A stretch of DNA of 64,000 nucleotides from a virus. This document shows, piece by piece, positions 28,568 to 47,305 of the stretch; position 1 is the stretch's first letter, and every line of letters begins with the position of its first letter. Below the pieces are notes generated by a model. It was not told where the DNA came from, searched no databases, and saw only the letters and a program-made list of their open reading frames with translations. A program made the position numbers and the translations under genes. The stretch lies in the IMG/VR virus record IMGVR_UViG_3300001279_000031, positions 22,340 to 86,339 of that record, one strand, 5' to 3'.

Positions 28568-28574
28568 AATGTTA

Positions 28575-29120
28575 TTAATTTTTGTAATTTTTGAGAATTT
28601 TTCTTAATTTTGCTTTAGATCTACTTATGTCACTTTTTACAGTGCCAATAGGGATCCGCATTAATTTACTAATCTCTCGATATGGTAGATTACTATAGTA
28701 GTATAATGTTAAAATCTTACGTTTAATAGGACTTAACTGGCACATACCTTTTTCTAGGAGTTCGCGTAACTCTAGATTTATTATATCAGCATCTGTATTA
28801 TTACAAGATACTTCTATATCTCCTATATTATCATCAATATCAACATTACGATTGCTGTTTTTTAATGATCTAATATAATCTATGCATGTGTTTACTGCTA
28901 TAGCTTTTAGCCAAGCTTCAAAACTTATATCATTTATATATGTATTTAATTTAAGCCATGCTTTTAAGAACGTACGATTGAGTACTTCATCTGTTAGACT
29001 AGTATCTTTCATAATATAACTAATGTTATTACGTATCTTATCTTTATACATATTATAAAGTTTTGTAAATGATATTTCATCTTTATTCTTAGCGTTTTCG
29101 ATTAAGATTTTCTCATTCAT
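28575..29120 (-). CDS. ECF (sigma-70 group 4) RNA polymerase sigma factor
   Basis: Region 2 DEVLNRTFLKAW...FEAWLKAIAVNTCIDYIR; region 4 LPYREISKLMRIPIGTVKSDISRSKAKLR. Confidence 0.9.
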   Translation of the reverse strand: MNEKILIENAKNKDEISFTKLYNMYKDKIRNNISYIMKDTSLTDEVLNRTFLKAWLKLNTYINDISFEAWLKAIAVNTCIDYIRSLKNSNRNVDIDDNIGDIEVSCNNTDADIINLELRELLEKGMCQLSPIKRKILTLYYYSNLPYREISKLMRIPIGTVKSDISRSKAKLRKILKNYKN

Positions 29121-29129
29121 TTAACTGTT

Positions 29130-29609
29130 TTAAAAAGGAAGATGTAGGATATTTGTAGCGTAATAATTACGCCACTCATATTCTGCATCTAAAATATTAA
29201 AATGTAAATTTGCCATTAATTGTGCTTTTTCATTGTGTGTCAATACTGGTAATTTACTTACCATATTACATGCTATTTTTTCAAATACTAAATTTGTTTT
29301 TCTAGTATTTAAGTCAATACACAATGATATGTTTTTGTTAACAAAAGCACAAATATTCCAGAATTTATCTTTAATGAGGTAATTTTGATCACATAAAGAT
29401 AATAGTTGTGTAATTGTAACTGTTTTATCTTTTTTATCATCGAAACATATATTACTGTTTGCTAAATAACGATACTCATTATATAATTCATTTAATGACA
29501 TTGTAAAAAATCTAGCTGTAGTACGTAAAAATACATATTTATCAGCTAGATTTAATTGTGAAATATCTGGATATCCCTTCCAAAAATTCCTATAATCTTT
29601 AAACATCAT
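29130..29609 (-). CDS. Hypothetical protein
   Basis: 159-aa ORF ending LPF. Confidence 0.65.
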   Translation of the reverse strand: MMFKDYRNFWKGYPDISQLNLADKYVFLRTTARFFTMSLNELYNEYRYLANSNICFDDKKDKTVTITQLLSLCDQNYLIKDKFWNICAFVNKNISLCIDLNTRKTNLVFEKIACNMVSKLPVLTHNEKAQLMANLHFNILDAEYEWRNYYATNILHLPF

Positions 29610-30099
29610 ACTCTTTATTATTTATGTATTTTTCCATTAAGGAAAATATAAAATCTGTAATGCTTATAGACCAGCCATTATCTAATTGCATTCTATTTTT
29701 AATGTAAGATAATGGTAATTGTTCTTTTTTAAGAACTAAAAATTGTTTAATCCAAATATTGATATCGTCCTGCGTTACTTTTTGTGGATCTAATTCATTA
29801 TAATCTATAAATAAAGGTGATTGTGGTAATTCTATTCCTTCAAATAATGGAATAACGAATATTTTCCTAGAAGTTTTGTCATTAAAATTGTAAGTTGATA
29901 ACGCATCGATTTCTTCTTTTGTTAAGGCAACAATATTGCCCTTTAAAAATTCTCTAAAATCTATGCCATTTAATATTTTTAATAGAGAATTTCCAATTAT
30001 ATTTACTAAGAATATCCTATCTTGTAAATATATAATGTATTGTCCTTTATTCATTATGAAATATTTTATAGAACTTTTTACTAATAAAAGACGCGTCAA
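29599..30099 (-). CDS. Hypothetical protein (true start probably the internal ATG, MNKGQ)
   Basis: ORF in a tightly packed operon. Confidence 0.6.
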   Translation of the reverse strand: MTRLLLVKSSIKYFIMNKGQYIIYLQDRIFLVNIIGNSLLKILNGIDFREFLKGNIVALTKEEIDALSTYNFNDKTSRKIFVIPLFEGIELPQSPLFIDYNELDPQKVTQDDINIWIKQFLVLKKEQLPLSYIKNRMQLDNGWSISITDFIFSLMEKYINNKEYDV

Positions 30100-30229
30100 C
30101 TATATCTAAGTCATATGTACTTTGTATCGCTAAAGTAAATGTCGACTCGTTACTACATGATTTAGCTAATTTTTTTAAGTTAGCTTTTTCACCAGGTTTA
30201 TCAAAAAAGGTATATTTAATTACTTTCAT
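30047..30229 (-). CDS. Small hypothetical protein
   Basis: 60-aa ORF overlapping both neighbours. Confidence 0.55.
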   Translation of the reverse strand: MKVIKYTFFDKPGEKANLKKLAKSCSNESTFTLAIQSTYDLDIVDASFISKKFYKIFHNE

Positions 30230-30747
30230 CGTACATTTTCTCTATAATTATCTACATCATCTATTATTTGACAATAATTTACTTTTAATTTTTTAAATTC
30301 ATCAAATGCTATTGGACTTAATATTCCTACGGGATAATTATAATTAGTATATTCAAATAATTTATTTATACGTGCAAATCTAGCATTTCTGATATTAGTA
30401 GATAGTAAAAATATGTTACTATATCTGTTAATATCTTCATATAAAATATTAACATATGCTATATATACCTTTTGATTTTTTAAGGCATATATCCATTCTT
30501 CCGGCATCCGTTTCTTTATGTATCCACGAAAGCCTTGTTTGCTTATTTTCTTTGATCCAACCATTTCTTTTTTATTTGATATTTCTAATTCATCAAGACT
30601 ATAATATTTATGATTTGATAATGTTATACTTATATTATTATATAATTCATTACTACTAATCATTTTAAGTACTATGCTAGTACCTATAACCTGTAAATAT
30701 ACAGGTTTTCTACTTATAATTATAGATATATACTCTTCATATGTCAT
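30226..30747 (-). CDS. Hypothetical protein
   Basis: 173-aa ORF. Confidence 0.65.
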   Translation of the reverse strand: MTYEEYISIIISRKPVYLQVIGTSIVLKMISSNELYNNISITLSNHKYYSLDELEISNKKEMVGSKKISKQGFRGYIKKRMPEEWIYALKNQKVYIAYVNILYEDINRYSNIFLLSTNIRNARFARINKLFEYTNYNYPVGILSPIAFDEFKKLKVNYCQIIDDVDNYRENVR

Positions 30748-30963
30748 AATAATAATAATATTATTAATAAAATTAATATAGCACTTAAATACTAAAGATA
30801 TACATGCTATATTAATATTTTATAATTTGATATTATGTAAAATATTGTAAGATTTTAATTTTAGTAGTGTGCGATCCAGTAGGACTTAACCATCAAGGGT
30901 CTCTACTAAAGGTTATTAATCTTAGATACTTAGGATACATCAATATCAAATCTTTTGATAGAT

Positions 30964-31542
30964 TTACCTATTTTTTCCAACATGATAACTTGCATTATTA
31001 GCTACACTTTCAGTGTTACTAGCTACACTTTTATCTGTAACATCGTGCAACTGTTGAGCGTCTTCCGGTAAGACTTCATTCTCAGTTTTACTTTTCCAAC
31101 TGCTAAAATATGTAGCTACATCTTTCGAAGCAAACAATTCTTGCAATTGCGAAATTAACAATGCTGTTTCTGTATTTAAATGATTTAAACCATTTGAATA
31201 CACTTTTTTAATCTCTTCTGATTTATTATAATAATCTCTAACAGATAATGTACCTGTTTTAAAAGTTTCACCGAGCTCGGTTAGACTCTTTAAACGGATT
31301 TTAAAGACTGTTTCTTCACCACGTTTATATCTAAGTAAAATAAGTTGACGACATCTCTCAAACTTATTTTCACTTAAAATCATAGAAGCTTGTTCAATCT
31401 TTATTTCTTGCTCCTTTTTTGTAATTTGTTCTGCAGCAGCTTTCAACGCATCCACATTCATTAATGTTTTTTTGGTGATCTGCTCTTTTATATCACCATC
31501 AACATCTAAAGACATAAAGTCATTTGTCTTTTTTTCTTCCAT
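30964..31542 (-). CDS. Coiled-coil hypothetical protein
   Basis: 192-aa ORF with the leader ttatcaaaATG. Confidence 0.7.
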   Translation of the reverse strand: MEEKKTNDFMSLDVDGDIKEQITKKTLMNVDALKAAAEQITKKEQEIKIEQASMILSENKFERCRQLILLRYKRGEETVFKIRLKSLTELGETFKTGTLSVRDYYNKSEEIKKVYSNGLNHLNTETALLISQLQELFASKDVATYFSSWKSKTENEVLPEDAQQLHDVTDKSVASNTESVANNASYHVGKNR

Positions 31543-31553
31543 TTTGATAATTT

Positions 31554-31739
31554 TTAATTGTTAATACTTTTATTTTGATAATATTGTTTTAATAATTTAT
31601 TTTTAGAAATACCAAATAATTCACGTATAGTGGATGGATTTGTTTTTCTAATTTCAATTATATCTGCATTTTTTTTAGTAGCTTTATAGCTACTATATAA
31701 ATGTGTTCTATCCTCTTTCAATTTTAATTTTTTTATCAT
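31554..31739 (-). CDS. Small basic hypothetical protein
   Basis: 61-aa ORF whose leader and first six codons form the duplicated 54-bp repeat. Confidence 0.6.
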   Translation of the reverse strand: MIKKLKLKEDRTHLYSSYKATKKNADIIEIRKTNPSTIRELFGISKNKLLKQYYQNKSINN

Positions 31740-31774
31740 TTTAATAATTTTAATTTAAAAGTAAGCAGATTAGC
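31721..31774. repeat. 54-bp direct repeat, copy A (left flank of host insert)
   Basis: Matches 34736-34789 at 51 of 54 positions without gaps. Confidence 0.95.
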
Positions 31775-31904
31775 CACCATCGGTTGTTACTTTATACGGT
31801 AATAGAAAGGTTGTCCAACCCAGTGCATAACTAACAAGACCTAATGTTATCAACAAATAGTCCCTAAATTCACGAAGGATAATAGTCTTACCAATTTTAC
31901 TCAT
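31770..31904 (-). pseudogene. yitT: Truncated 5' stub of a host YitT-family membrane protein gene
   Basis: MSKIGKTIILREFRDYLLITLGLVSYALGWTTFLLPYKVTTDGG* resembles the Bacteroidales YitT N-terminus (recalled pattern DYxxIxLG...GWxxFLLP...TTGG). It is cut off where the repeat begins. Confidence 0.75.
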
Positions 31905-31921
31905 ATAATATATTCTTATTT

Positions 31922-34714
31922 TCAGCCGACTACAACGTTCACAATCTTATTCGGAACAACGATAATCTTCCTGATATTCTTCCCGGCAATCCATTTCTGT
32001 GAATCGTCATGCGCAAGTACCGTCTTTTCAATGGCTTCGCGGTCAATGTCGACAGGGAAATCAATGGAGAAACGAGCTTTGCCGTTAAACGAGATTGTGT
32101 ATTTAACGGAATCTTCTTTCAGATATTCTTCATTGCACACAGGCCATTGTGCATCGCAAACGGATGCCGTATGTCCCAATGCTTCCCATAACTCCTCGGC
32201 AATGTGCGGGGCAAACGGAGCAATAAGCACAACCAAGTCACTCAACACCTGCTTGTTGTTGCACGTCAAAGCTGTGAGTTCGTTTACGCAAATCATGAAT
32301 GCACTGATAGAAGTGTTGTATGAGAAACTCTCTATATCTCCGGTTACTTTCTTTATCAGTTTGTTAATGCTTTTCAACTCTTCTTTCGTGGCTTCACCGT
32401 CGACGGGGATAAACTCGTCGGCCTTGTTCCAGAATAAGAACCAGAATTTGCGCAAGAAACGGTGAACACCGTCTATTCCGTTAGTATCCCACGGTTTCGA
32501 TTGCTCAACAGGCCCGAGGAACATCTCGTACATGCGCAGTGTGTCGGCGCCGTATTTCTCAACAATCATATCGGGATTAACGACGTTGAACATCGACTTG
32601 CTCATCTTTTCAACAGCCCAACCGCAGACATACTTGCCATTTTCCAATACAAACTCTGCATTGTTATATTCCGGTCTCCACTTCTTGAAAGCCTCAACGT
32701 CCAATATATCATTCGATACAATATTTACGTTAACATGTATTGGCGTAGTATCATATTTGTCTTTCAACCCGAGAGAAACAAAAGTGTTTGTATCTTTAAT
32801 TCGGTAAACGAAGTTGCTTCGTCCCTGAATCATTCCCTGATTAACCAGTTTTTGGAACGGCTCTTCCTTAACCGAAACTCCTAAATCAAATAAAAACTTG
32901 TTCCAGAAGCGCGAATATATCAAGTGCCCTGTTGCATGCTCGGTACCTCCCACGTACAAATCGACATTCTGCCAATAACGGTCGACCTTTTCCGAAACCA
33001 ACGCCTTATTGTTATGCGGATCCATGTAACGAAGATAGTATGCAGATGAACCTGCAAAACCCGGCATAGTATTGAGTTCCAACGGATAACCTTCTTTTGT
33101 CTTCCAGTTCTTGGCGCGTCCCAATGGCGGTTCGCCGGTTTCCGTCGGTAAATATTTGTCTATTTCAGGCAATTCAAGAGGCAGTTCGTCATCACTTAAA
33201 ACATGAGGTATTCCGTCTTTGTAATACACCGGGAACGGTTCACCCCAATAACGTTGGCGACTAAAGATGGCATCGCGCAGGCGGTAGTTTATCTTTACTC
33301 GCCCGAGATTATTCTCGGTTACGTACTTCTTTGTTGCTGCAATTGCCTCTTTTACTGTCATGCCGTTGAGATTAAGTTGTCCTTCCTTCTCTTGTCCCGG
33401 CTTGGGTGAATTCATCATTATGCCGTCCTTGGCATCAAAGCTCTCCTCGCTGACGTCGCATCCTTCAATCAGCGGACGAATTTCAAGGCCGAACTCTTTG
33501 GCAAAAGCATAGTCGCGACTGTCGTGCGCCGGTACGGCCATAATGGCTCCCGTGCCGTATCCTGCCAATACATAATCGCTAATCCAAATGGGAATAGCTT
33601 CATTTGTCAACGGATTTATAGCATACGAACCTGAGAATACTCCCGTAACCTTGCGGTCGGCAATACGTTCACGTTCGGTTCTTTTCTTTGTTCTTTCCAA
33701 ATATGCCTTCACGTCTGTTTGTTGAGCCGGAGTAGTCAACTCGGCAACCAACTCACTTTCCGGGGCAAGTACCATGAATGTAACACCGAAGATAGTATCT
33801 GCACGCGTAGTGAAAATAGTAAACTCAACGTCGCTGTCTTTTACTTTGAACTGCATTTCAGTACCTTCGCTACGCCCTATCCAGTTACGTTGTGTCTCTT
33901 TAAGCGAATCTGTCCATTCGATAGTGTCCAATCCGTCAAGCAGGCGTTGGGCGTATGCCGACATACGCAAGCACCATTGGCGCATCTTCTTCTGCACAAC
34001 AGGATAACCGCCGCGCAACGAAATTCCTTCAACAACTTCATCATTGGCAAGCACCGTACCTAACTTCGGACACCAGTTAACAACCGAATCTCCAAGATAA
34101 GCTATACGACAATTCATCAAAGCATCGCTTTTTGCCTTTTCGTCCTTGGCTTTCCATTCGTCGGCAGTAAACAAAAGTTCTTCGCTGCAAGCAGCGTTAA
34201 TGCCTTCAGTACCTGTGGTTTCAAACTTCTCTATAAGTTTATCTATCGGTTGGGCTTTGTCCAGGTCTTTATCATAATAACTGTTGAACATACGGATGAA
34301 AGCCCACTGTGTCCAGTGATAATATCCGGGGTCGCACGTACGTACTTCACGGTCCCAATCGAAAGAAAAGCCAATCTTATCCAATTGGCTGCGATAACGG
34401 TTTATATTGTTTGTTGTTGTAATTGCAGGATGTTGTCCGGTCTGAATGGCATATTGTTCTGCTGGAAGCCCGTATGCATCATATCCCATCGGATTAAGAA
34501 CATTAAATCCTTGTAACCGTTTGTAACGGGCATAAATATCTGTAGCAATATATCCCAACGGATGCCCAACATGCAAACCCGCACCGGAGGGATAAGGAAA
34601 CATATTCAGTACATAGTATTTCTTCTTTGTTTCGTCTTCTACAACATGGTACGTTTTATTCTCGACCCATTTTTTTTGCCATTTCTTTTCAATCTCGCTG
34701 AAATTATATTCCAT
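31922..34714 (-). CDS. leuS: Leucyl-tRNA synthetase of Bacteroidales host type, intact (930 aa)
   Basis: [14 protein letters not shown] (HIGH), KMSKS, CP1 editing motifs FTTRADT and [15 protein letters not shown]-terminal IVNVV; visibly GC-richer than its flanks. Confidence 0.98.
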
Positions 34715-34735
34715 GATGACCGTATTTTATTATCT

Positions 34736-34789
34736 ATTTTAATTTTTTTACCATTTTGATAATTTTAATTTAAAAGTAAGCATATTAGC
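34736..34789. repeat. 54-bp direct repeat, copy B (right flank of host insert)
   Basis: Matches 31721-31774 at 51 of 54 positions. Confidence 0.95.
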
Positions 34790-35123
34790 ATATTTGCATA
34801 CCTTATTTTGCTAAATTCCCATGTCCTTCATTCAAATCACGTTTGAACATGATTGCCGTCAAATAGCTTGTATTATATATAATATAATATTAGGGGTCTG
34901 GAATGCTTACCAATTACTTTATTCATATGATAATAATTAATAATTATTTGTTAATGAAGAATATTTCGTTATTCATCATCATTGTAGCGCATCTTTCTAT
35001 CCTTTTTTTTAAAAGGATTTAATTTAGCATGTTTTGCTTTAGTGTGAAAAGTAGGATTATTATCGTTACCACTTCTCTTTTTTTTGTCCTTAAAAGTTTT
35101 GCTCATGACACATAACTTTATTC

Positions 35124-35783
35124 TTAATACAGCATTAAATATTGAAAATATCCAAGTGACTTATGCTTAATAGCTTGTTTACAATCACCAAATATTGGTG
35201 AATTTATAACAGTCGCACCATCTTTTATAGCTCCAAGTAACTGTAAATATGTTAAATTAAACTTAAGATCTGTAAAATTCTTATTCCATTCTACAATTTC
35301 TCGTGAAACGTTTCCAAATTCTGCTGGACGTGTTACTTTTATACTATCTATACCAACATAATCACAAAAATACGAATATTTATTATTTCCATTAAAATTT
35401 GCATGAACTGAATATTCTATATAAAGAGTAATACAAACTTTATACTTTTTGCCATCTATGATTTTTTCAATATTTTTTGAAAATTCTGCATGTTTGTCAT
35501 CATTTATGGCAATTCGATCAAATCCCATTTTATAAAATACACCAAAATCTAATAAAAAATTAGTAGTTATAGTTTTTGGTGAATGCCAACGATGATTTAT
35601 AAACAATCGTTGTTTAATCATTTCTTTATTAGAAAGCATAGCTAAATCAAGTGATAGATTTTCATTAAAATCTTTTACTATATTTGCACGTATACCTTCA
35701 ATTGGATAAGGACATTGTTTGTATTTTACTAATTGTCCTTTGTTGATGGAAACCATACACTTATTTTTATCAACAATCCTCAT
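35124..35783 (-). CDS. Hypothetical protein
   Basis: 219-aa ORF. Confidence 0.7.
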   Translation of the reverse strand: MRIVDKNKCMVSINKGQLVKYKQCPYPIEGIRANIVKDFNENLSLDLAMLSNKEMIKQRLFINHRWHSPKTITTNFLLDFGVFYKMGFDRIAINDDKHAEFSKNIEKIIDGKKYKVCITLYIEYSVHANFNGNNKYSYFCDYVGIDSIKVTRPAEFGNVSREIVEWNKNFTDLKFNLTYLQLLGAIKDGATVINSPIFGDCKQAIKHKSLGYFQYLMLY

Positions 35784-35788
35784 AATTT

Positions 35789-36292
35789 TTATATTTTATA
35801 ATTATTCCGTAGAATTATACGAAAAGTAAATTCATTTATTTGTTTAGAAAAGTTACTTTTCATATATGCGATATTAAACGCAGTAGGATAATCGTGGATA
35901 AACAACAAAATATTTTTTATTAACATTTTTGTATCATCATCGTGCTCTTCGTTAATAAATTTTAATATTCTTAAAATATATATCCATTCTTTTGGAATAG
36001 ATTTTGTAAACTCTTCTACGATTACAAGTGATTTTATTTTTTTATATAATTTATCCAACATTGTATCAATCGTATTTCTTTCTGCAGTTGTACGATGTAT
36101 CATTCGAATATGTCCGGATTCATCGATGCTGATGTTTTTTATTTCTCTAGCATCAAAAATCCTTATTGATCCATTTTTACCACGAAATTGTGTATTCGCG
36201 GTATTACTAATTGATTTAGCAGATTCATCAGTAATCGATTCTGCTGGTATTTGTGGATCGTCAATGCAAATTAAAACAAAGGCGCGTTTCAT
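35789..36292 (-). CDS. Hypothetical protein
   Basis: 167-aa ORF. Confidence 0.7.
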   Translation of the reverse strand: MKRAFVLICIDDPQIPAESITDESAKSISNTANTQFRGKNGSIRIFDAREIKNISIDESGHIRMIHRTTAERNTIDTMLDKLYKKIKSLVIVEEFTKSIPKEWIYILRILKFINEEHDDDTKMLIKNILLFIHDYPTAFNIAYMKSNFSKQINEFTFRIILRNNYKI

Positions 36293-36293
36293 A

Positions 36294-36653
36294 TTAATAC
36301 GAATTATTTTTTCTTATTGATAATATACTATCTATATATTTATTTAACTTAGCATCATAATCTACACGTTTATAGAATTTATAATGTGTTTTATAATTAG
36401 CAACAATAAATTGTTTTGTTATTGGTACTTTACTTTTTACCAAAGTATCAATTATAACTGCTAAACAGTTATTACTAATTGTATAATATACAGAATCTGT
36501 TAAAAACTGTGCTTTACTAGCATTTCTATCTAATATTGTAGATGAAATGATTTCTTTAGTTGTCTTTTTATGTTGGCAACTACTAAGATTAAATACCATT
36601 ACAATTGCAAATATAGCAACTGTAAACATTAAGAATTTTCTAAATTTACTCAT
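36294..36653 (-). CDS. Putative lipoprotein
   Basis: Basic N-terminus, hydrophobic core and LSSC lipobox. Confidence 0.65.
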   Translation of the reverse strand: MSKFRKFLMFTVAIFAIVMVFNLSSCQHKKTTKEIISSTILDRNASKAQFLTDSVYYTISNNCLAVIIDTLVKSKVPITKQFIVANYKTHYKFYKRVDYDAKLNKYIDSILSIRKNNSY

Positions 36654-37003
36654 AATTTATTGATTAAATTAATAATTTTATAAAATCTAATAAAAGATAA
36701 GTATGAACTTTACTAATAGCATAACTTCTACATTATTAAACTTATTAATTGTTCATACTTATCAGGATATATATATTAATAATTGAGGACTATTTAAAAG
36801 TATTACTATATTCACATACCATAATACTAAGTAGGTTATACAACTATATTCACCAACTTTAAAACGAATAATTATGTCAAACATTAGTCTGTTAAAAAAC
36901 AGATTGTATTCACACACTATCTATTTATAACTAGTGCCCTTTAAAAACATATATAACAAAATAGTTATTAAAAAACCATTCACGGTTAATTAACTTTTTA
37001 ATT

Positions 37004-37300
37004 TTAATTTATTGCATTATCTTCATTTTCATTTACTAATTCTTTATTGATTAAAAAGTAAATATAATTTATTGCAAATAATAGAATTATTGAAGATATA
37101 AATGCAATTATACTTATCATTAATATCAAATGAACATTTATTTGATTAAAAAAGTCCATTAAACATTTAAGATAAAAGCTACTAAATATTGACGTGATGC
37201 CAACTACTCCTGCACTAATTAATATTAATATAATAATATCTAAGCTTAAGAATAAAGATATTAATAAAATAGTGTCAATAACTTGCGTTGTTATTTTCAT
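37004..37300 (-). CDS. Small membrane protein
   Basis: Two long hydrophobic stretches. Confidence 0.5.
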   Translation of the reverse strand: MKITTQVIDTILLISLFLSLDIIILILISAGVVGITSIFSSFYLKCLMDFFNQINVHLILMISIIAFISSIILLFAINYIYFLINKELVNENEDNAIN

Positions 37301-37363
37301 TATGTAAATTTAATTATTATAAAATATACACAACTAATAATTATACATAGAATCATAAAAGCT

Positions 37364-37648
37364 CTAATCATTTTCACAATACTCAAAATTACTTTTGTTC
37401 CATTCCTTTGTGTCATAATTATATACTATACTTTTATCATTGATGTCTGTATTTTCATCAATGGCAATACAAATAAAACATTTACTTCCAACATTACTAT
37501 TTACTAATTTTAATAGATCAAAACACATACAATTACATTTATTTTTAAATATAGCGCAATCTTCACATTTTGTAAATGTACTATTAATTTTAAGTCTATA
37601 TACTTTATTATTAAGTATAATTCTAGGCAATTTTCTAAATTTACTCAT
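37364..37648 (-). CDS. Small Cys-rich hypothetical protein
   Basis: CEDC...CNCMC...C pattern, possibly metal-binding. Confidence 0.6.
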   Translation of the reverse strand: MSKFRKLPRIILNNKVYRLKINSTFTKCEDCAIFKNKCNCMCFDLLKLVNSNVGSKCFICIAIDENTDINDKSIVYNYDTKEWNKSNFEYCEND

Positions 37649-37652
37649 AATT

Positions 37653-37889: not shown

Positions 37890-37894
37890 AATAT

Positions 37895-38305: not shown

Positions 38306-38307
38306 TT

Positions 38308-39108: not shown

Positions 39109-39428
39109 GGTTTAACACTTTCAATCGATTCTATTGCTTTTTCTGTACAAAGAATTGTCTCTATTTCATCCGATATTTCTACAGATGGGACATAAACTGT
39201 AAATTTACAATTATCTTTTTTCGATGTCCCATCAACAGCCAACTGGTTAATGGTTGCAGCACCAGCCCAGTACCATATTTTACGGGCATTGGTTAATCTT
39301 GCATTATGACCATCTTTTGCTTCCAATGTTCCATAATATACGCCAGATCTATCTCCACGTACTATAACTTTCTTTTCTAAAAAATTTGATTTCATAATTT
39401 TAAAATTTATAATAAATATTCTTTCCAA
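39093..39428 (-). CDS. DUF6948-like Sm-fold protein (true start probably MKSNF)
   Basis: IVRGDRSGVYYGTL...ARKIWYWAGA; usually found upstream of the Gly-rich gene. Confidence 0.7.
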   Translation of the reverse strand: MERIFIINFKIMKSNFLEKKVIVRGDRSGVYYGTLEAKDGHNARLTNARKIWYWAGAATINQLAVDGTSKKDNCKFTVYVPSVEISDEIETILCTEKAIESIESVKPWTAQ

Positions 39429-39742
39429 ATTTCAATAAAAGTTTGGCTTCCTAAATAGAGAGCTGTTTCTTTATTAAAAGAGCCAAGCCAAAATCTAATA
39501 GATGAGTTCATAAATATTAAGTCATAAGAAAAGCGAGCTTCAGTACAAGCATTAAGATCTTTTATATTATTCCACCAAGGAAAATATATTCTTTCTTCTC
39601 TTGTATGTCCAATATTCAATGCTTCGCTAATTGTACATAACTTATAATAGGCTTGCACATTTTTTGGCATATTATCCAAATAACGTGGTTCATCTTTACC
39701 TAAAAGAGTGAGAGCCTTTTCATAACTTTTTACTTTTCTCAT
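39407..39742 (-). CDS. Hypothetical protein
   Basis: VKSYEKA...AYYKLCTISEALN...YFPW, a pattern recalled from Bacteroides phages. Confidence 0.7.
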   Translation of the reverse strand: MRKVKSYEKALTLLGKDEPRYLDNMPKNVQAYYKLCTISEALNIGHTREERIYFPWWNNIKDLNACTEARFSYDLIFMNSSIRFWLGSFNKETALYLGSQTFIEIWKEYLL

Positions 39743-39911
39743 TTTTATTTGTAATATATGTAAATATCATACAAATACCTTTTATTATAACGATAATGGA
39801 TATAATTGAATCTATTATAAACCATTTAACATTAAGTATAAATAAAACACCTAATACAAACAACAGTACTCCTATACATAGTATTGTTATTCCATTATTA
39901 AATTTTTTCAT
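39720..39911 (-). CDS. Small two-TM membrane protein
   Basis: Hydrophobic 63-aa ORF overlapping the next gene. Confidence 0.55.
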   Translation of the reverse strand: MKKFNNGITILCIGVLLFVLGVLFILNVKWFIIDSIISIIVIIKGICMIFTYITNKNEKSKKL

Positions 39912-39943
39912 ATCAAAATTATTTATATTTAAAAAGCTATATA

Positions 39944-40144
39944 TTAGAAAGGTTGTTTTGTTATGAATGTACGTTTACAGTGATTACACCGGCAAAGGAA
40001 ATACTCACATTCTTCATCACCTTCAATGCTATGAACAATACTAATATCATCACTTTTACAGTAAGGACAACTTGTTTTTTTACATACTATCAATATTAAA
40101 AAAACAATACACATTACGAAGATTAACAATAATAAATACAACAT
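39944..40144 (-). CDS. Membrane-anchored zinc-ribbon protein
   Basis: TM helix followed by CPYC...CNHC. Confidence 0.65.
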   Translation of the reverse strand: MLYLLLLIFVMCIVFLILIVCKKTSCPYCKSDDISIVHSIEGDEECEYFLCRCNHCKRTFITKQPF

Positions 40145-40205
40145 AATTTTCTATCTTTTTTGTTGATTAATAATTCTATCTCAATTCAAGATTTGTTGTT
40201 TACAG

Positions 40206-40241
40206 TAATGCAGTAAGTATTGTTACATACTCACTGCATTA
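40206..40241 (-). terminator. Hairpin after the early gene 40246-40869
   Basis: taatgcagt...actgcatta with an inner agtat/atact stem. Confidence 0.55.
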
Positions 40242-40245
40242 TTTA

Positions 40246-40869
40246 CTATCGACGTTGATAACCATTTTGCGGTTGTCTCTGTTGTTGTTGTTGAGGTTGT
40301 TGTTGAGGTGCTATATTCTTAGCAGTTTCTTCAGCAATCGTATCTTCTTCTTTAGCAACAGCTGTACTTGCAAACTCACAGGACGAATTGAACAATCCTT
40401 GTGCAAGTATCTCTTTACTATTGCCACGTTCATAGACATACTTGCAAGCATCACTATCGTAGTACTGCTTACAAAATACTTCCAATGCATTATACAATCT
40501 ATGACCTCCATTAAGATCATCGATGTAATCACCTTTATGATGCATGTTACCAGCGCCATCAACCAAGTCTGACATATAACGTCTATAGAACGGTTTGTCA
40601 TAAGTCACGACCTCAAATGTTCCATGCATTATACTCATCTCTTCCGGTAGTGGTTTATCTTCTTCAGCATCGCCACCTTTTTCTTGTGAAATATACTTCT
40701 TGAATGCATTTACTATACCAGCACTAAAGAAGTTTTGTTTCCTCTCATTTTCACTCCAAAAGTTGTCAGCATTCTTCAGAGTGACTTGCAAATATTCATT
40801 ACCAGCGTTTGCATGCGCTGTAGCCGGAATCGTATTGATCTCAGCATCTATTACTTTAAACTTTGCCAT
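40246..40869 (-). CDS. Acidic early protein with Gln-rich tail
   Basis: 207 aa, preceded by the early motif; ends TAG-TAA. Confidence 0.8.
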   Translation of the reverse strand: MAKFKVIDAEINTIPATAHANAGNEYLQVTLKNADNFWSENERKQNFFSAGIVNAFKKYISQEKGGDAEEDKPLPEEMSIMHGTFEVVTYDKPFYRRYMSDLVDGAGNMHHKGDYIDDLNGGHRLYNALEVFCKQYYDSDACKYVYERGNSKEILAQGLFNSSCEFASTAVAKEEDTIAEETAKNIAPQQQPQQQQQRQPQNGYQRR

Positions 40870-41138
40870 TTTTTGTATTATTTTTATTTAATATTATCCT
40901 TTTTTAATAGTGGTTGTTCATTTTTTATTTTATCCAAATTCCATAGACTATATACAATATTCTATCATGTAAAGTCTATCTTGTTTGGATGATTTCTATT
41001 CGTTTTATGATAGTTGTTGTTCATTTTTTATGTTACCAAAATCTATCATCTCTCATGCGATTTCTATCCATTTTCATGTATAAAGTAGTATATACTGTGA
41101 ATACTACATACTAGGACATCGTACAATGCCCCTCACAC

Positions 41139-41229
41139 GCATTCTCGTGCGTTCTAACGAACTTTCTATGCGAAATGGTATAACTATACCAGACGACATG
41201 AGATCGTGCGTTAGAACGCTTTAAAATGC
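41139..41229. repeat. Concentric dyad-symmetric DNA element
   Basis: gcatt/aatgc, gcgttctaacg/cgttagaacgc and tggtata/tatacca are all centred on ~41184. Confidence 0.75.
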
Positions 41230-41256
41230 ATTTATTTAATTAAATAATACAGTCCC

Positions 41257-41589
41257 CTAATCCGGGAACTGCATTACCATACTTGCGGCGATCTTCTCGA
41301 AAAAATCGCAATCAAGATCTTCTAATTCTATGACATCGTACAAATCAATGCCACGACTATCAAGCTCTTCGGCGAACTTGATATACTCTACGACAACCTC
41401 CTCACGGAAGTCTCCATCGTATTCATCAATTTCATCATAATCATTATACCTTCCTAGAGCCCATTTAATTGGGTTCCAGCCTTCGTCTAATATATGGCAT
41501 ACACCATCCATTAGACGATTATCATGACGACTTCTTGTAGCCATCATGGTATAAGCCTCCTCGATAGAAGCTTTTAATACGTTGTTCAT
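41257..41589 (-). CDS. Highly acidic early protein, paralogue 1
   Basis: 110 aa; aligns end to end with 41698-42018. Confidence 0.85.
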   Translation of the reverse strand: MNNVLKASIEEAYTMMATRSRHDNRLMDGVCHILDEGWNPIKWALGRYNDYDEIDEYDGDFREEVVVEYIKFAEELDSRGIDLYDVIELEDLDCDFFEKIAASMVMQFPD

Positions 41590-41697
41590 AATTTTATTTA
41601 TTTAATTGATTAATATTATCATACTCAAATAGTTGTTGTTCATTTTATATTCTATCCATTTTCATGGATAAAGTGGTACTGTGAATAATACAGTCCC

Positions 41698-42018
41698 TTA
41701 ATCTTGGAACTGTATTATTGTACTCGTAGCGATTCCTTTGAAGAAATCACCATCTAATTGCCACTCATCCCTATCACTTAGATCTACTCCTCTAGCTAGG
41801 AGTTCTTGGTAATATTTGATGTACTCCACAATGACTTCCTTCCGGAAATCATCGTCTTCATCATCCTCAATGTCACGGTATCCACCAGCGGCCCATTTAA
41901 TTGGGTCACACTTCTCGTCCATAATGCAGCATACTGCCCACATTAGACGAGAATCATGGCGACTCTTTATGGCTATTGCACCATAAGCATCGCTCAAACA
42001 ATTCGTTAACATACTCAT
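41698..42018 (-). CDS. Highly acidic early protein, paralogue 2
   Basis: 106 aa; shares SRHD.RLM..VC.I.DE...PIKWA.G.Y and FR.EV.VEYIK with paralogue 1. Confidence 0.85.
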   Translation of the reverse strand: MSMLTNCLSDAYGAIAIKSRHDSRLMWAVCCIMDEKCDPIKWAAGGYRDIEDDEDDDFRKEVIVEYIKYYQELLARGVDLSDRDEWQLDGDFFKGIATSTIIQFQD

Positions 42019-42324
42019 AATATCATTTATTTAATTAACATCACACTCAAATAGTTGGTGTTCATTTTATAAGCACCAAACAATGAAGAAGATACCGATT
42101 TTATAGCATGCTTTTTCGTTAGACCAATATGCCTGACAAGCTTTGCCATTTGCCACAAAGGTGACGGGGGTATCTTCTTCGATAAAGTAGAGTGGGTGTT
42201 CATTTTGGGGGTATTCCTTATTGTCTGATATATACACAACATATTTCAGGACATACCGGATATACATAAAAATACCCCAACATAAATTAATATGCCGGGG
42301 TATGAAAGGAGGAGTATCTTTATA

Positions 42325-42939
42325 TTATTTGTTGTTGTATAAGTTACTTAGTTTATCAAACGTAAATACTATTGATAGATTATTATCAACTTGCTTAGTA
42401 GCATGTATATTATTAGTGAATAAGTATGCCTCAATTAGTTTACCAGTACTTAGTGAGTATACTAACTTAAAGCAATTAACTGGTATTAGATTAGTATAGT
42501 CACAACCACCACAACAAATGAGAAGACTGTCTGTCTACGATAACTAACGTAACTAAGATTCATTTGCTTTCCATATACCACGATTTAGATTTGGGGTTTG
42601 TGGCACGGCATTATAATAGCGAAAGGTTAGTTCTTCGGTTGTACGATTTCTAGCAAAGTCTTCAGCATTACACATGTGACCGATATCATAGCCACTACCA
42701 GTATAATTAAAATGAGGTAATGATGATTTAAAGGTTAGACCTGTACGACTAGATTTACCACCACCATGCCATAGTTTATAGATAACAAAAGATGGGGCTT
42801 CGATTTGATACGAGTAGTATGAAGTGTATATAGGATTCTTTATGATTGTATCTACTTTACTTATAATTTGACTAAAACAGTTGCTAACACTGAATAATAG
42901 TGCTATCATTAATATCTTTACTTTTTTAAATAATTTCAT
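42325..42939 (-). CDS. Secreted DNA/RNA non-specific endonuclease, NucA/EndA-like (three internal TAG, 204 aa)
   Basis: Signal peptide, YDIGHM and NAVPQTPNLNRGIWKANE. Reading TAG at 42553, 42544 and 42535 as Gln restores the IP..FK.V...AYLFTN C-terminus up to TAA 42325. Confidence 0.85.
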
Positions 42940-43145
42940 TAGTGTCTATATTTTTTTCGTGTAAAACTTAATTGTATGTACAATCGATTAATCATTATCC
43001 TAATAACATTATAACTATTACTAACTATATGATAAATACCAGTATGCCAACAATGTGTTAGTGACTTATTGTGTTTCAACTTGTATTTACTAATTGCTTT
43101 TATACATAACGTATCATTGCCATGCTTATCAAAGTTTATTATCAT
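42939..43145 (-). CDS. Small basic hypothetical protein
   Basis: ATG 43145 lies ~25 nt downstream of the leftward ECF-type promoter; its stop overlaps the nuclease ATG. Confidence 0.5.
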   Translation of the reverse strand: MIINFDKHGNDTLCIKAISKYKLKHNKSLTHCWHTGIYHIVSNSYNVIRIMINRLYIQLSFTRKKYRH

Positions 43146-43169
43146 TTTGTGTTGGTGGTTTACAAATAC

Positions 43170-43195
43170 TAACGTAAGATAGATCAAAAAGTTGC
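43170..43195 (-). promoter_or_regulatory. ECF-type promoter GCAAC-N16-CGTTA (leftward)
   Basis: - strand reads GCAAC tttttgatctatctta CGTTA. Confidence 0.7.
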
Positions 43196-43394
43196 TTTTA
43201 AGGGCTTCTTTCTCATATACTCTTTCTTCGTATATATACTATTGTCATAGTATATATACTCATACAGAGTATTATAGAGATTAATAAATACAGTAAGACA
43301 GAGAGATTAATCAACAGAAGAGACAACAATAAAGAAAGAAATATATAAAGAAAGAAAACATAATAGAGAAGATAAGGTTATAGAGAGAGTAATT

Positions 43395-43420
43395 GCAACC
43401 TTTACTTGTTCTATACGTTA
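43395..43420 (+). promoter_or_regulatory. ECF-type promoter GCAAC-N16-CGTTA (rightward)
   Basis: GCAAC ctttacttgttctata CGTTA, ~24 nt before ATG 43444. Confidence 0.7.
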
Positions 43421-43443
43421 CTTATTCAAGTAACATACTACAT

Positions 43444-43962
43444 ATGAATAAATACATAACTCCATTAATTGATTATATACGATATAAAGTATAGAACTGT
43501 GATTTGAAATATATTAATTATATATTATACTATAGCGATTTCAAATCAATACAGTCTTATTGTCGTTCAATGACAAAATCAAGTTATCACTTTATACAAA
43601 ACATGCCTTACTGTAGCGCTATATTAGCGTCAATGAAACCAATAGAAACATATCATTTAAACCATTGTGATATGGATGCTTTATCGCAGGCTTCTAAGAA
43701 AACAATAGATGATGTAATCGAAGAACTGCACATGATCAAATCAAAGACTGGTGAAAAAGGATTAGATGATTTCGTAAGGAATATTTGTAATATTGGTGGC
43801 AGACCAACAGTCGATGGTCGAGATATGCTGATATACTTATCCCAACAGTGGGATAGAAAAGAACGCAGAGATGCATTAAAGTACTATCATGATACTGATG
43901 AACTAGAAAAACTACTTATGGATGATGGAGATTAGAAAATAGAATGTACTAAATATATATAA
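43444..43962 (+). CDS. Hypothetical protein (TAG=Gln, 172 aa)
   Basis: ATG 43444 is in frame with ORF 43504 across TAG 43492; a second TAG at 43933 precedes TAA 43960. Confidence 0.65.
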
Positions 43963-43979
43963 TTTTTAATATTAAAAAT

Positions 43980-44531
43980 ATGAATAAAATAAAATTTATT
44001 AAGGACTATGAAAATAGTTTTATGGATACAATGTTTTCAAACGATTTTCTTAGTGTTATAATACCGAAGGATACTGTATTAGAAGTTAACGCTGATGGCA
44101 TATATGTTTTTACATATACGTTATCTTCAGCATCTATTAACGATACTACAGAAAGTAAAAGTAATGATAACAAAACAGAATGTCCTAGTATAGAAGTAAC
44201 TACCTATATAGCTTTTGATGAAGATGACGTCGAAAAGTTAATTAGTAATGGAACTGTAATAAGACCTATTACGCAAGAGCAATATGAAAAAGACCTATAC
44301 AACAAAGCTGTTAAACAGAACCAACAAGATTGTGAAATACGTGAAAGATTAGACAAACTAAATGAAATGTATAATACCAGATTGAATCAACTACAAAGTA
44401 GGAGTGACAATGACTTTTATTCTAAAACAGATACTGATATTAGAAAGTATGTTTGTGAATCAATTATAGATGCAATATACTATATAAAAAATGGTGAACA
44501 AAAAATAGTAAAAAGAGAAGGAAATATCTAA
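43980..44531 (+). CDS. Hypothetical protein
   Basis: 183-aa ORF. Confidence 0.7.
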   Translation: MNKIKFIKDYENSFMDTMFSNDFLSVIIPKDTVLEVNADGIYVFTYTLSSASINDTTESKSNDNKTECPSIEVTTYIAFDEDDVEKLISNGTVIRPITQEQYEKDLYNKAVKQNQQDCEIRERLDKLNEMYNTRLNQLQSRSDNDFYSKTDTDIRKYVCESIIDAIYYIKNGEQKIVKREGNI

Positions 44532-44532
44532 A

Positions 44533-44997
44533 ATGAAAGAGACAAATTATAAAGAAATGGCTAAGGTTATAAGCGCTGGTCTTGAATATTTAATGACTAA
44601 GGATGTACTAGTAAAACCTTTAGAAGTTGTTAAAGTACAAAAGCAATTCGAAGAACCTATAGTTGATAAACGCACTAAAAAAGATGGTATAGACGTAAAT
44701 GATTATTCTAAAACTAGAACAGTAACAAGGGAAGTTGAATCAAATTTTAAGAAGGGAATCGTATTATCTATACCAACATGTTTAAAAGAAATCAAACAAG
44801 ATTTTGAAGTTGGTGATATAGTCATATTCCCAAAGAAATTCGCAATAGAATATGATCTATTTAAAGACTCATTACTTGTAAAGCCTTACGATATTGTAGC
44901 TGTAGTAACAGAACCTAATAAGGATGGTATCTTAAAGTTAAATGAAGTAATAACGAGTATAATTAAAGATAAAAATGATATCTCCAATAGCAATTGA
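44533..44997 (+). CDS. GroES-like (co-chaperonin fold) protein
   Basis: DVLVKP...GIVLSI...FEVGDIVIF...DIVAVV follows the GroES pattern. Confidence 0.55.
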   Translation: MKETNYKEMAKVISAGLEYLMTKDVLVKPLEVVKVQKQFEEPIVDKRTKKDGIDVNDYSKTRTVTREVESNFKKGIVLSIPTCLKEIKQDFEVGDIVIFPKKFAIEYDLFKDSLLVKPYDIVAVVTEPNKDGILKLNEVITSIIKDKNDISNSN

Positions 44998-45487
44998 TAT
45001 ATATACAGACGGTTCTTCGAAAGGTAATCCTGGCAATGGGGGACTGGCTTACATAATACGAACAAACGGTATTATGTATAAGTTTGCTCAAGGAGAACTT
45101 ACTGCTACTAATAATAGAATGGAATTAAGCGCGGCTATTGCTGCGTTTAATGCTATTAAAAATATAGTAATTGATAACAAATTACAGTATATTATAAATG
45201 TTTATAGTGATTCGCAATATATAACAGAGGCTATTAATAAGAATTGGTTGTTTAATTGGGTTAGAAGAGGCTTTTTGAATGTTAAAAATTCAGATTTATG
45301 GAGTCAATTCTTCTTACTTGTATCTCCATTGATGTTACAAACCAATGTAAAGGTTAATTTTATATGGATAAAAGGGCATAATGGCAATAAATATAATGAA
45401 ATTGTTGATAAATTAGCGAAAAGTGCCTGTGGTAAACAGGGTATTATAACAAATTATTATTTCAATGAGAAAACAACTGAGTGTTAA
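44975..45487 (+). CDS. rnhA: Ribonuclease HI
   Basis: Motifs YTDGS.KGNPG.GG, TNNRMEL, SDSQY, KNSDLW and KGH.GN..NE.VD.LA. Confidence 0.95.
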   Translation: MISPIAIDIYTDGSSKGNPGNGGLAYIIRTNGIMYKFAQGELTATNNRMELSAAIAAFNAIKNIVIDNKLQYIINVYSDSQYITEAINKNWLFNWVRRGFLNVKNSDLWSQFFLLVSPLMLQTNVKVNFIWIKGHNGNKYNEIVDKLAKSACGKQGIITNYYFNEKTTEC

Positions 45488-45731
45488 ATACGATGATTAC
45501 TTTTTAGATGTATATAGGCAATTAGCTAAAGAATTTAACATGGATGAAGATCAAATAATGGCAATATGCCGAAGTGAATTCAGATACACGTCTGAAATAA
45601 TGAAAAGTAATAACACAAAAAACATTTTATTTAACAAGTTATTCAAATTTAAACTAAAGAAAAAATATGAAACTAATAAGACCACATGTAGCAGTAATCC
45701 AACAGAATCCTGGACTAGATGGAATGTATAA
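45465..45731 (+). CDS. Small IHF/HU-like DNA-binding protein
   Basis: Two helices followed by NILFNKLFKFK, resembling the HU beta region. Confidence 0.5.
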   Translation: MRKQLSVKYDDYFLDVYRQLAKEFNMDEDQIMAICRSEFRYTSEIMKSNNTKNILFNKLFKFKLKKKYETNKTTCSSNPTESWTRWNV

Positions 45732-46629
45732 ACATATATTGGAATGTGCTAATATAAAGTCTACTACTACTGATAAAGAAACAGTAGACAAGATAATTGA
45801 CAAGAGTCTATTAGAACACGGTACTGTATACTTATACATTGAGGATAATCAGCAACTAGAAGAAGACTGTGGACCAGAAGAAGGATTTACAGATATGGAT
45901 GTGTTTAAATACATAAGAAGTTTCTTCGTTAAAAACCCATTTAGTAATTGTATGTACAGACACCAAGAAGGAATCTGCGATAGACTATACATTACAACAA
46001 ATTATAGAGTAATTGTTGATAATGATCTTAAGTTTTTAATGAAATACTGGTGTGAACCAAATATTGATTTCGAATGTAGATACACTATTAAATGGAATAT
46101 AGATTACCCTACTTATATTTCTATATTACGGCATAGATTACTTACGACAACGGCAAATAATAGTTTTAAAAGTGTATTGCAGCATTATGATACTGATAAA
46201 AAAGATATGAATTTAACATTCGTAATACCAGATTGCATGGATTTAGTTACTACTGGTGAAGCTAAAGCATCTGATATAATAAAATTATGTAATGATAAAC
46301 TAAAAGATGACAAATTAATTAGTGATGAAAAGCAGTATTTTATATATTTAAAAAATTGTGCATATACAGAAATAGGTTTTAATGACATGTTTAAATCTAA
46401 TGGAGATGACTATGATACGATTAAATATATATATAATGCACCACTTTGTGTTACAATTTATACCACAGGATTTAGATATGATTGGGCCAATATTCTTAAA
46501 TATGAAATGAATAATGCAAATGAAAACAAGCGTTTGTTTAATTCAGTATATGAAATTATAGATAATTTAAACACATTACACAATGAAGGTAGGAATAGGA
46601 GTGATAACTACTCAACAAAGAAAAGTTAA
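45667..46629 (+). CDS. thyX: ThyX-like protein with degenerate catalytic motif
   Basis: LEHGTVYL, ITTNYRV and LRHR are present; the RHRxxSxxxxSxR signature is eroded. Confidence 0.65.
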   Translation: MKLIRPHVAVIQQNPGLDGMYKHILECANIKSTTTDKETVDKIIDKSLLEHGTVYLYIEDNQQLEEDCGPEEGFTDMDVFKYIRSFFVKNPFSNCMYRHQEGICDRLYITTNYRVIVDNDLKFLMKYWCEPNIDFECRYTIKWNIDYPTYISILRHRLLTTTANNSFKSVLQHYDTDKKDMNLTFVIPDCMDLVTTGEAKASDIIKLCNDKLKDDKLISDEKQYFIYLKNCAYTEIGFNDMFKSNGDDYDTIKYIYNAPLCVTIYTTGFRYDWANILKYEMNNANENKRLFNSVYEIIDNLNTLHNEGRNRSDNYSTKKS

Positions 46630-47254
46630 TAGTAATATATTCAATTTGATAAGTCAACCAACAGAATTTTATGTTTATACTGATTATGAACGTAAAGGAT
46701 GTTCATATGGTAGGAATGAATGCATAAAACATTTGTATGATGCTAAATGTGATTATATATTTTTGTTTGATGATGATACTTATCCGATTATAAAAGGTTG
46801 GGAAGATAAAATTATACAGTGGATGAACAAAGAAAATGTTCATGTGACAGGTATAATAGATTATAAAACAAATAAGGCTACGCAATTAATCAACAATGAT
46901 ACACTAGTATTTAATGCGGCTGTTGCAGGACCTTTTTTAGCTATAGATAGAAAAGCAATAGAAACAGTTGGTTATTATAGTACAAAATATACTATATATG
47001 GTTGGGAAGATGTTGCTTATTGTGGTAGATGTAAGAATGCTGGGTTGTGTGGAGATAGAAATGGTGTTAAATTACCTATATGGTTAATGATGTATATACA
47101 CGATGAAGATATGTACAATGAAACAGCATTACAAACATTTTCAGATGAAGATAAAAAGAAAGGAATTGCTTTAAATCAATCAGAATGTGCTACAGAAGTA
47201 ACGTCAAGTAAATTATATTATGATTATGAAGAAAACCAACGTAGGAAAAACTGA
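46583..47254 (+). CDS. GT2-family glycosyltransferase
   Basis: G.SYGRN, YIFLFDDD (DxD), R.AIETVGY and YGWED. Confidence 0.85.
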   Translation: MKVGIGVITTQQRKVNSNIFNLISQPTEFYVYTDYERKGCSYGRNECIKHLYDAKCDYIFLFDDDTYPIIKGWEDKIIQWMNKENVHVTGIIDYKTNKATQLINNDTLVFNAAVAGPFLAIDRKAIETVGYYSTKYTIYGWEDVAYCGRCKNAGLCGDRNGVKLPIWLMMYIHDEDMYNETALQTFSDEDKKKGIALNQSECATEVTSSKLYYDYEENQRRKN

Positions 47255-47278
47255 TAAGTTTAAATACAAAGGTACACC

Positions 47279-47305
47279 GCAACAAATCAAATAAATATTA
47301 CGTTA
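47279..47305 (+). promoter_or_regulatory. ECF-type promoter GCAAC-N17-CGTTA, upstream of the tRNA/late operon
   Basis: GCAAC aaatcaaataaatatta CGTTA in an intergenic gap. Confidence 0.7.

Follow-up and report, generated by a model that had tools for sequence, protein, structure and literature searches.

The window analysed here, a 64,000-nucleotide (nt) stretch of viral DNA comprising bases 22340-86339 of the single 86,339-bp contig of IMG/VR record IMGVR_UViG_3300001279_000031 (30% G+C), encodes a sigma factor of the extracytoplasmic function (ECF) type and carries three intergenic copies of a bipartite, promoter-like element, GCAAC-N16/17-CGTTA. We propose, with a probability of roughly 65%, that the two belong to a conserved phage sigma/promoter system in which the phage ECF sigma factor reads these sites. 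The gene belongs to a recognised family, and the motif lies before genes and co-occurs with the sigma gene in related phages; that the sigma factor reads the sites, and the order of events that would follow, we infer from these sequence comparisons.

The sigma gene and the motif

An earlier note on this DNA, made from its letters, had read the gene as an ECF sigma gene, and profile searches bear this out. The 181-residue product has Sigma70_r2 at residues 21-87, Sigma70_r4_2 at residues 120-172 and no other Pfam domains, which is the two-domain layout without region 1.1 or 3 that, at about 180-200 residues, distinguishes ECF sigma factors, and it scores 81.8 bits against the TIGR02937 sigma70-ECF model (cut-off 42.9). 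It is also matched by PHROG 1740, "RNA polymerase sigma factor" (E = 3.8e-27), its best solved relative is B. subtilis SigW (5wuq, E = 1.2e-15), and it is 46% identical to the annotated sigma factor of the crAss-like phage cr50_1. Among equivalog models such as SigW and RpoE, none reaches its own cut-off on the protein.

The same note had described three intergenic copies of GCAAC-N16/17-CGTTA, each containing TACGTTA, two of them as a divergent pair at the strand switch. Exactly these three are found in the window (0.05 expected; 0 of 100 shuffles reach three), and the same three are the only copies in the whole genome (Table 1). Twelve bases are common to all of them, and each copy is intergenic and oriented towards the next gene, at 24, 23 and 55 nt from the ATG codons at 43145, 43444 and 47361, respectively. 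The reversed control pattern gives 11 matches, every one inside genes. With the looser pattern [GC]AAC-N16/17-CGTT, 3 of 12 matches in this genome are intergenic and in the sense orientation, 4.3% being expected (p = 0.013), and the case from this genome alone is suggestive, not compelling; the motif draws its weight from the 12 bases common to its copies, from their sense orientation between genes and from the relatives. The composition of the element agrees with what the earlier note had given as typical of the class, namely AAC at -35 and CGT at -10, as in the account of ECF promoters in the available part of PMC5758882.

Co-occurrence of the motif with the sigma gene

A tblastn search of the sigma factor against 50,697 phage records matched 67 records, the best of which are Suoliviridae crAss-like phages with 46-29% identity whose matching genes are annotated "RNA polymerase sigma(-W) factor". 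All best phage matches of the sigma factor are Suoliviridae records, which together with synteny around the sigma gene with cr50_1, terminase, portal and major head protein families and a 4465-aa ORF makes the phage a candidate Suoliviridae-type crAss-like phage. A sigma-like gene with 29% identity is also present in the cultured Bacteroides phage BS162P1, which is not classified as crAss-like. For comparison, this genome and ten sigma-carrying relatives were set against eight sigma-less Crassvirales genomes. PF08281 is above its cut-off in nine of the nine sigma-carrying records searched, cr50_1 being counted by its annotated sigma factor, and in none of the eight sigma-less genomes, where a single sub-threshold match of 16.7 bits was seen.

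A de novo search for 4+4 bipartite words in 275 upstream regions of six sigma-carrying genomes, with this genome left out, returned GAAC-N16/17-CGTT as its top word, present in 17 regions against 0.84 expected (p ~1e-16), and the ranks directly below it are shifted versions of the same word. Genome-wide in these six, 17 of its 26 copies lie upstream of genes. The same search of four sigma-less genomes produced nothing like it. The pattern [GC]AAC-N16/17-CGTT has 97 matches in the eleven genomes with the sigma gene, of which 35 are intergenic and sense (3, 7, 6, 5, 3, 1, 2, 3, 2, 1 and 2 per genome), as against 0 of 41 in the eight sigma-less genomes; intergenic-sense positions make up 3.0-4.7% of the sigma-carrying genomes, and thirty-five permuted control patterns have a mean of 0.09-0.63 such matches per genome. 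The gene maps behind these counts are crude open reading frame (ORF) calls in the best-fitting code for each genome, not curated annotation, and the 35 do not include intergenic matches more than 200 nt from the next ORF of at least 60 amino acids (aa) or beside small uncalled ORFs ("IGother"; for example, cr50_1 32488, cr1_1 26655 and cr52_1 27641), several of which look good. Thus, the co-occurrence that the earlier note had put forward for checking holds in 11 of 11 sigma-carrying genomes, weakly in three of them, with intergenic-sense sites in 0 of 8 sigma-less genomes.

The aligned consensus is (G/A)(G/C)AAC-N16/17-aCGTTAta. A matrix built from 24 sites of the relatives alone ranks the three sites of this genome 1st, 2nd and 6th, and it finds no site above 16.2 bits in any sigma-less genome. 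Agreement extends to flanking positions that the search pattern did not specify: CGTT is preceded by A in 18 of the 24 relatives' sites and in 3 of 3 here, and followed by A in 16 of 24 and again in 3 of 3.

The sites of cr50_1 precede the annotated genes gp011, gp025, gp035, gp036, gp039, gp046 and gp072, among which are a putative holin, a chaperonin-like gene and three genes for HNH or homing endonucleases. An orthologous site in three of the relatives stands 9 nt before the ATG, a spacing that suggests a leaderless message. ECF-type sites in the relatives often lie directly before HNH or homing endonuclease genes within interrupted core genes (major head protein, dUTPase, replication block), those of cr50_1 being at 15628-15651 and 27870-27893 (L003) and at 4767-4790 (L004). 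The relatives cr1_1, cr118_1 and cr4_1 have nearly the same site, ending ATCTCCACATACGTT, as though the promoter moved together with the mobile gene.

Points against and alternative explanations

Several observations count against reading of the sites by the phage sigma factor. The signal is weak in cr118_1 (one site), cr124_1 (one) and cr272_1 (two poor sites; control maximum 2), and descent confounds the co-occurrence: the 11 genomes with the gene belong to the Suoliviridae or their close relatives, and the 8 without it to the Steigviridae or Intestiviridae. Genome-wide, 139,298 5+5 bipartite words have at least three copies, and the GCAAC/CGTTA word is outside the top 25, so that copy number alone is unremarkable. 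The leftward site scores 13.7 bits, below three in-gene matches, and the -35 element is GCAAC in all three sites here, while 19 of the 24 relatives' sites have G where these have C (mostly GAAC). Cellular ECF sigma genes typically, although not universally, have an adjacent anti-sigma gene and activate their own operon. Beside the phage sigma gene no anti-sigma family was found, its 127-aa neighbour having no Pfam or NCBIfam match, and the region upstream of the sigma gene holds no pattern match, so that the self-activation usual for ECF sigma factors is not seen; the nearest matrix match (29701-29724, 14.4 bits) has CATT instead of CGTT and lies within a gene. Lastly, the 250 nt upstream of homologues of the sigma factor (36% identical to the phage protein) were inspected at 80 Flavobacteriaceae loci, whose products are 64-100% relatives of the nearest cellular sigma factor: AAC-N16/17-CGT occurs at 7 of the 80 loci and GAAC-N16/17-CGTT at none, no shared bipartite element of ECF type was found there, and the comparison gives no guide to specificity.

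The missing site before the sigma gene also speaks for another reading, in which the three sites are real promoters read by a host ECF or other host alternative sigma factor and the phage sigma factor has a different purpose, for example the redirection of host genes. Bacteroidota have many ECF sigma factors, and AAC/CGT promoters are generic for the family (PMC5758882, available part). The motif nevertheless tracks the phage sigma gene in the intergenic-sense counts given above, and sigma-less phages that infect the same bacterial phylum lack such sites; that a phage family should bring an ECF sigma factor and yet depend on one of the host's, with the family-typical motif, would moreover be a strange coincidence. 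We consider this explanation improbable, although it fares best among the alternatives.

Somewhat less probable still is that the element is bound by the giant virion RNA polymerase, or by a phage DNA-binding regulator, rather than by sigma-containing host polymerase. Such a polymerase is common to all crAss-like phages, and the divergent pair of sites lies at the strand switch, where very early transcription might start. This universality also tells against the idea, however, since the motif is absent from the eight sigma-less Crassvirales, although all Crassvirales encode the virion polymerase according to the available part of the phi14:2 preprint. In phi14:2 the early genes, whose transcription is rifampicin-resistant and ascribed to the giant virion RNA polymerase, are reported in that part to share no upstream motif (10.1101/2020.03.07.982082). 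Furthermore, the element has the fixed spacing of 16/17 nt and the AAC/CGT content of ECF promoters. That the motif class is real in gut relatives and the three copies here are chance occurrences or unused relics is very improbable: triple bipartite words are common by chance, the loose pattern reaches no better than p = 0.013 here and most of the relatives' sites have another -35 variant, but the three copies share twelve bases where 0.05 copies are expected, all lie between genes in sense orientation with a start codon 23-55 nt away, and two are the top two matrix matches in the genome.

Predicted transcription units

In the sigma/promoter system that we favour, which is probably conserved among Suoliviridae-type crAss-like phages, the phage ECF-type sigma factor would bind host core RNA polymerase and direct it to a small promoter set with (G/C)AAC at -35, CGTTA at -10 and a spacing of 16-17 nt. 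The leftward site would drive a 68-aa ORF and an amber-containing nuclease gene up to a terminator, the first rightward site would head rightward TAG-poor genes, and the second would drive the tRNA and dUTPase genes, its transcripts being able to extend into the TAG-rich genes for terminase, portal and capsid. The sigma factor itself would be made first from the leftward arm and would then switch on the three units; its gene lies 14 kb into that arm behind a sigma-70-like promoter class and is thus probably expressed first.

Table 1. Features of the window bearing on the predicted units (window positions; PHROG values for the late genes with TAG read as Gln)
Feature	Position	Strand	Evidence or remark
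Weak fourth promoter candidate, GGAAC-N17-CGTT	16409-16433	-	14.6 bits; 3' end of gene, 75 nt before glycosyltransferase gene
127-aa protein, two N-terminal hydrophobic helices	28184-28567	-	Starts 7 nt past sigma stop
Gene for 181-aa sigma factor P0001, ECF type (group 4)	28575-29120	-	Pfam, TIGR02937, PHROG
Second promoter-like class, five copies of AAAATGAACAMCMACT	40907-42206	-	Before first small genes of leftward arm
Intrinsic-terminator-like hairpin and T run	42272-42303	-	13 pairs, loop 6, tail TTTTATGTAT; closes two-gene unit
Non-specific nuclease gene, N-terminal hydrophobic leader	42325-42939	-	Pfam, PHROG nuclease; TAG at codons 129, 132, 135
68-aa ORF, first gene after leftward promoter candidate	42939-43145	-	No family found
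Leftward ECF-type promoter candidate, GCAAC-N16-CGTTA	43170-43195	-	Relatives' matrix 13.7 bits (43171), rank 6
Rightward promoter candidate 1, GCAAC-N16-CGTTA	43395-43420	+	Relatives' matrix 19.3 bits (43396), rank 1
172-aa ORF if ATG 43444; alternative start TTG 43504	43444-43962	+	ORF call; TAG at codons 17, 164
Rightward promoter candidate 2, GCAAC-N17-CGTTA	47279-47305	+	Relatives' matrix 18.7 bits (47280), rank 2
Pair of small ORFs (101 and 106 aa) separating promoter candidate 2 from tRNA	47361-48020	+	No secure family
tRNA, anticodon CUA (amber suppressor)	48069-48138	+	ARAGORN; Rfam tRNA 39.8 bits; only tRNA in window
dUTPase gene	48161-48628	+	Pfam dUTPase, E = 4.5e-20; TAG count 0; last TAG-free gene before late block
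TAG-rich late block start	48710-56814	+	186-aa ORF (6 TAG), terminase, portal, major head protein
Large terminase, 20 TAG	49270-51351	+	PHROG, E = 1.2e-144
Portal, 24 TAG	51355-53856	+	PHROG, E = 8.8e-156
Major head protein	55306-56814	+	PHROG, E = 6.5e-138

The terminator at 42303-42272 indicates that the leftward site heads a short closed unit rather than the long leftward arm. In the second gene of that unit, the Endonuclease_NS match covers residues 78-127 (46.5 bits) under the standard code and extends to residues 78-179 (62.9 bits) once TAG is read as Q, so that it crosses the three TAG codons, which fall within seven codons, only with TAG read as Gln. Just beyond the terminator lie the five copies of AAAATGAACAMCMACT (at most two mismatches; 0.63 expected), at least two of which contain TGAACA-N16-GATAAT. 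A scan for sigma-70-type promoters has matches at 41642-41615 and 40920-40893, although overall it is at chance (54 found, 55.9 expected). This second, sigma-70-like promoter class is the likelier source of early transcripts and eventually of the sigma mRNA 12-14 kb downstream. The Bacteroidota-type promoter element TAnnTTTG was also considered and set aside: of 148 occurrences in the genome, nine are in or beside defined intergenic gaps, mostly on the wrong strand.

Midway between the divergent promoter candidates is an inverted repeat (43217-43272; 26 nt, 85% complementary, 4 nt between the arms), which might act as operator, as origin or as a terminator in both directions, and beside it runs a purine-rich tract with short direct repeats (43275-43390). 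Behind promoter candidate 1, the product of the first ORF has a weak SocA_Panacea match only, below cut-off, and the TAG-free genes that follow include a weak GroES-like match, an RNase H and a glycosyltransferase-like gene. Between the stop codon of the glycosyltransferase gene and promoter candidate 2, two near-identical metagenome fragments carry a 107-nt insertion (L005 2530-2636 and L006 773-879, relative to window 47257); the promoter candidate itself is unchanged in both, one of the fragments being 96-97% identical to the stretch.

The weak fourth candidate may be a chance match. The glycosyltransferase gene that follows it (15546-16334, minus strand) has 5 in-frame TAG codons within an otherwise TAG-free replication arm, and a Glyco_tranf_2_5 match spans residues 15-223 of its product with TAG read as Q.

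Recoding and the suppressor tRNA

Under the standard code the plus-strand virion genes are broken up, and reading TAG as Gln yields long abutting ORFs and raises coding cover from 0.60 to 0.92. TAG is almost absent from the minus-strand arm (43145 down to ~11540) and from the plus-strand stretch 43980-48628. A 4465-aa ORF with 117 TAG codons at genome positions 15384-28781 (window up to 6442) is presumably the giant virion RNA-polymerase-containing protein of crAss-like phages. The third copy of the motif does precede the genes leading to the CUA tRNA, as the earlier note had it: it lies 763 nt upstream, and no plus-strand terminator-like site was found between promoter candidate 2 and the tRNA. 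A hairpin just before the tRNA (48037-48061) has a T run on the minus strand only and resembles a terminator acting on antisense transcripts, not on the rightward operon.

The earlier note had gone on to propose a layered timer, in which virion RNA polymerase drives early genes, the ECF sigma factor redirects host polymerase, the suppressor tRNA is made and TAG-containing late genes become translatable. Part of this stands. Among recoded sigma-carrying relatives, the order of ECF-type site, TAG-poor genes, CUA tRNA and TAG-full terminase and portal is found again; in this genome the promoter and tRNA are paired at 0.76 kb, and an amber-containing nuclease gene lies behind its own promoter candidate. 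What does not stand is a circuit made for the purpose: the sigma gene and motif also occur in four standard-code relatives (cr50_1, cr1_1, cr10_1 and cr118_1), at the same end of the module, so that the circuit is not built around the suppressor and is older and more general than recoding. The tight pairing is, moreover, confined to this genome among the 7 recoded genomes with the sigma gene; in the others the closest site on the same strand precedes the tRNA by 4.2 kb (cr109_1 and cr4_1), 5.1 kb (cr125_1), 3.9 kb (cr52_1) and 2.0 kb (cr124_1), and cr272_1 has no nearby site.

In recoded members, then, the tRNA sits within a module that is probably under control of the sigma circuit. The 0.76-kb pairing and the amber-locked nuclease fit serial transcriptional and translational gates, and we tentatively raise a double gate, doubtful as it is, in which an early promoter class or the injected polymerase would lead to the sigma factor, the sigma factor to the three units including the tRNA, and the tRNA to translation of the TAG-containing virion genes and a secreted nuclease; the role and timing of the virion RNA polymerase in this scheme are inferred by analogy with phi14:2. 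If true, a transcriptional switch would arm a genetic-code switch.

Other features of the window

The neighbourhood of the sigma gene is syntenic with that of cr50_1 (sigma, ~128-aa, ~500-aa (E = 2e-5) and ~134-aa genes, then a long non-coding stretch), where a 129-aa gene in the same place, 6 nt past the sigma gene, encodes a product weakly similar to the 127-aa protein (E = 0.078). An ORF-free 1.5-kb stretch follows the sigma cluster here (window positions 24648-26168 and 22976-23199), and cr50_1 has an unannotated 2.5-kb gap (44404-46919) at the syntenic place; a search of the long non-coding stretch with Rfam gave no family at threshold.

A 930-aa leucyl-tRNA synthetase gene (31922-34714, minus strand) lies between direct repeats of ~35 nt or more containing GCTTACTTTTAAATTAAAATTAT (region 31740-34968), each repeat copy running into a start codon. 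Just upstream of the gene, an Rfam RAGATH-9 RNA match (34775-34920, minus strand) scores 75.4 bits against a gathering score of 75.2.

The DNA runs that contain the stretch are labelled as wetland metagenome, and no RNA run is listed among those containing it. Megablast against the phage collection gave no match to the stretch, and IMG/VR scans with the sigma factor and with a 320-aa protein as queries found no relatives; an RNase H query led to two distant loci, which were not used. A metagenome scan returned two fragments 96-99% identical to the stretch, too close for footprinting, and two DNA runs, available as contigs only, hold near-identical strains without useful variation at the sites, the third site falling between contig pieces.

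Comparison with known systems

The only worked-out transcription scheme for a crAss-like phage is that of phi14:2, and no member of the phage family concerned had been cultured according to the 2023 Crassvirales review (PMC10136315, available part). A conserved sigma factor with its consensus would therefore offer a testable map of part of the transcription programme in an abundant, uncultured phage family, a means of predicting where operons start across hundreds of metagenomic genomes, with the promoters of intron-borne homing endonucleases among them, and, for recoded members, a candidate route for switching on the suppressor tRNA. In Bacteroidota, the pair of promoter and sigma factor might further find use as an orthogonal expression part.

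Phage sigma cascades, in which a phage sigma factor joins host core polymerase and is required for a later temporal class, are known in the manner of phiEco32 gp36, SPO1 gp28/gp34 and T4 gp55, and gp36 is the nearest to the system proposed here. In phiEco32, gp36 acts with host core polymerase to transcribe middle and late genes, and early genes are read by another holoenzyme (PMC12276001). The system predicted here from sequence resembles gp36 in pairing a phage-encoded sigma factor with a phage-specific promoter consensus. It differs in that gp36 is a distant sigma homologue whose promoters are centred on AATGTA near -11.5 and which has a helper, gp79 (PMC12276001, available part), whereas the sigma factor described here is a plain ECF member above the NCBIfam cut-off, with classic AAC/CGT promoters and no known helper. 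With cellular ECF sigma factors such as B. subtilis SigW it shares the two domains, a length of about 180 aa and AAC/CGT-type sites; unlike them, it is encoded by a lytic phage, with sites before phage genes and with no anti-sigma family or self-activation found.

In phi14:2, host polymerase transcribes middle and late genes from primary-sigma-like promoters, and long intergenic regions give highly expressed non-coding RNAs (10.1101/2020.03.07.982082). Unlike the phage studied here, phi14:2 has neither a sigma gene (PF08281 absent) nor ECF-type sites (0 of 4 pattern matches). Recoded phages have been described as placing the suppressor tRNA just upstream of recoded structural and lysis genes and as avoiding the recoded codon in early genes (10.64898/2026.08.21.746148; PMC10136315); the available parts of these accounts name no promoter for the tRNA and no sigma factor, to which the present analysis adds a candidate class. 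In the literature on crAss-like phages that we searched, no sigma regulon was found, the sigma factor being known there only as a GenBank product name, and neither "sigma" nor "promoter" appears in the main text of PMC7886860 (Yutin et al. 2021), of PMC10136315 or of 10.64898/2026.08.21.746148, a preprint on a recoded relative; the supplements of PMC7886860 and of the phi14:2 preprint could mention the sigma factor or these motifs. On the sequence comparisons presented here, the proposed sigma/promoter pairing is of a known kind and, within that literature, new for crAss-like phages.

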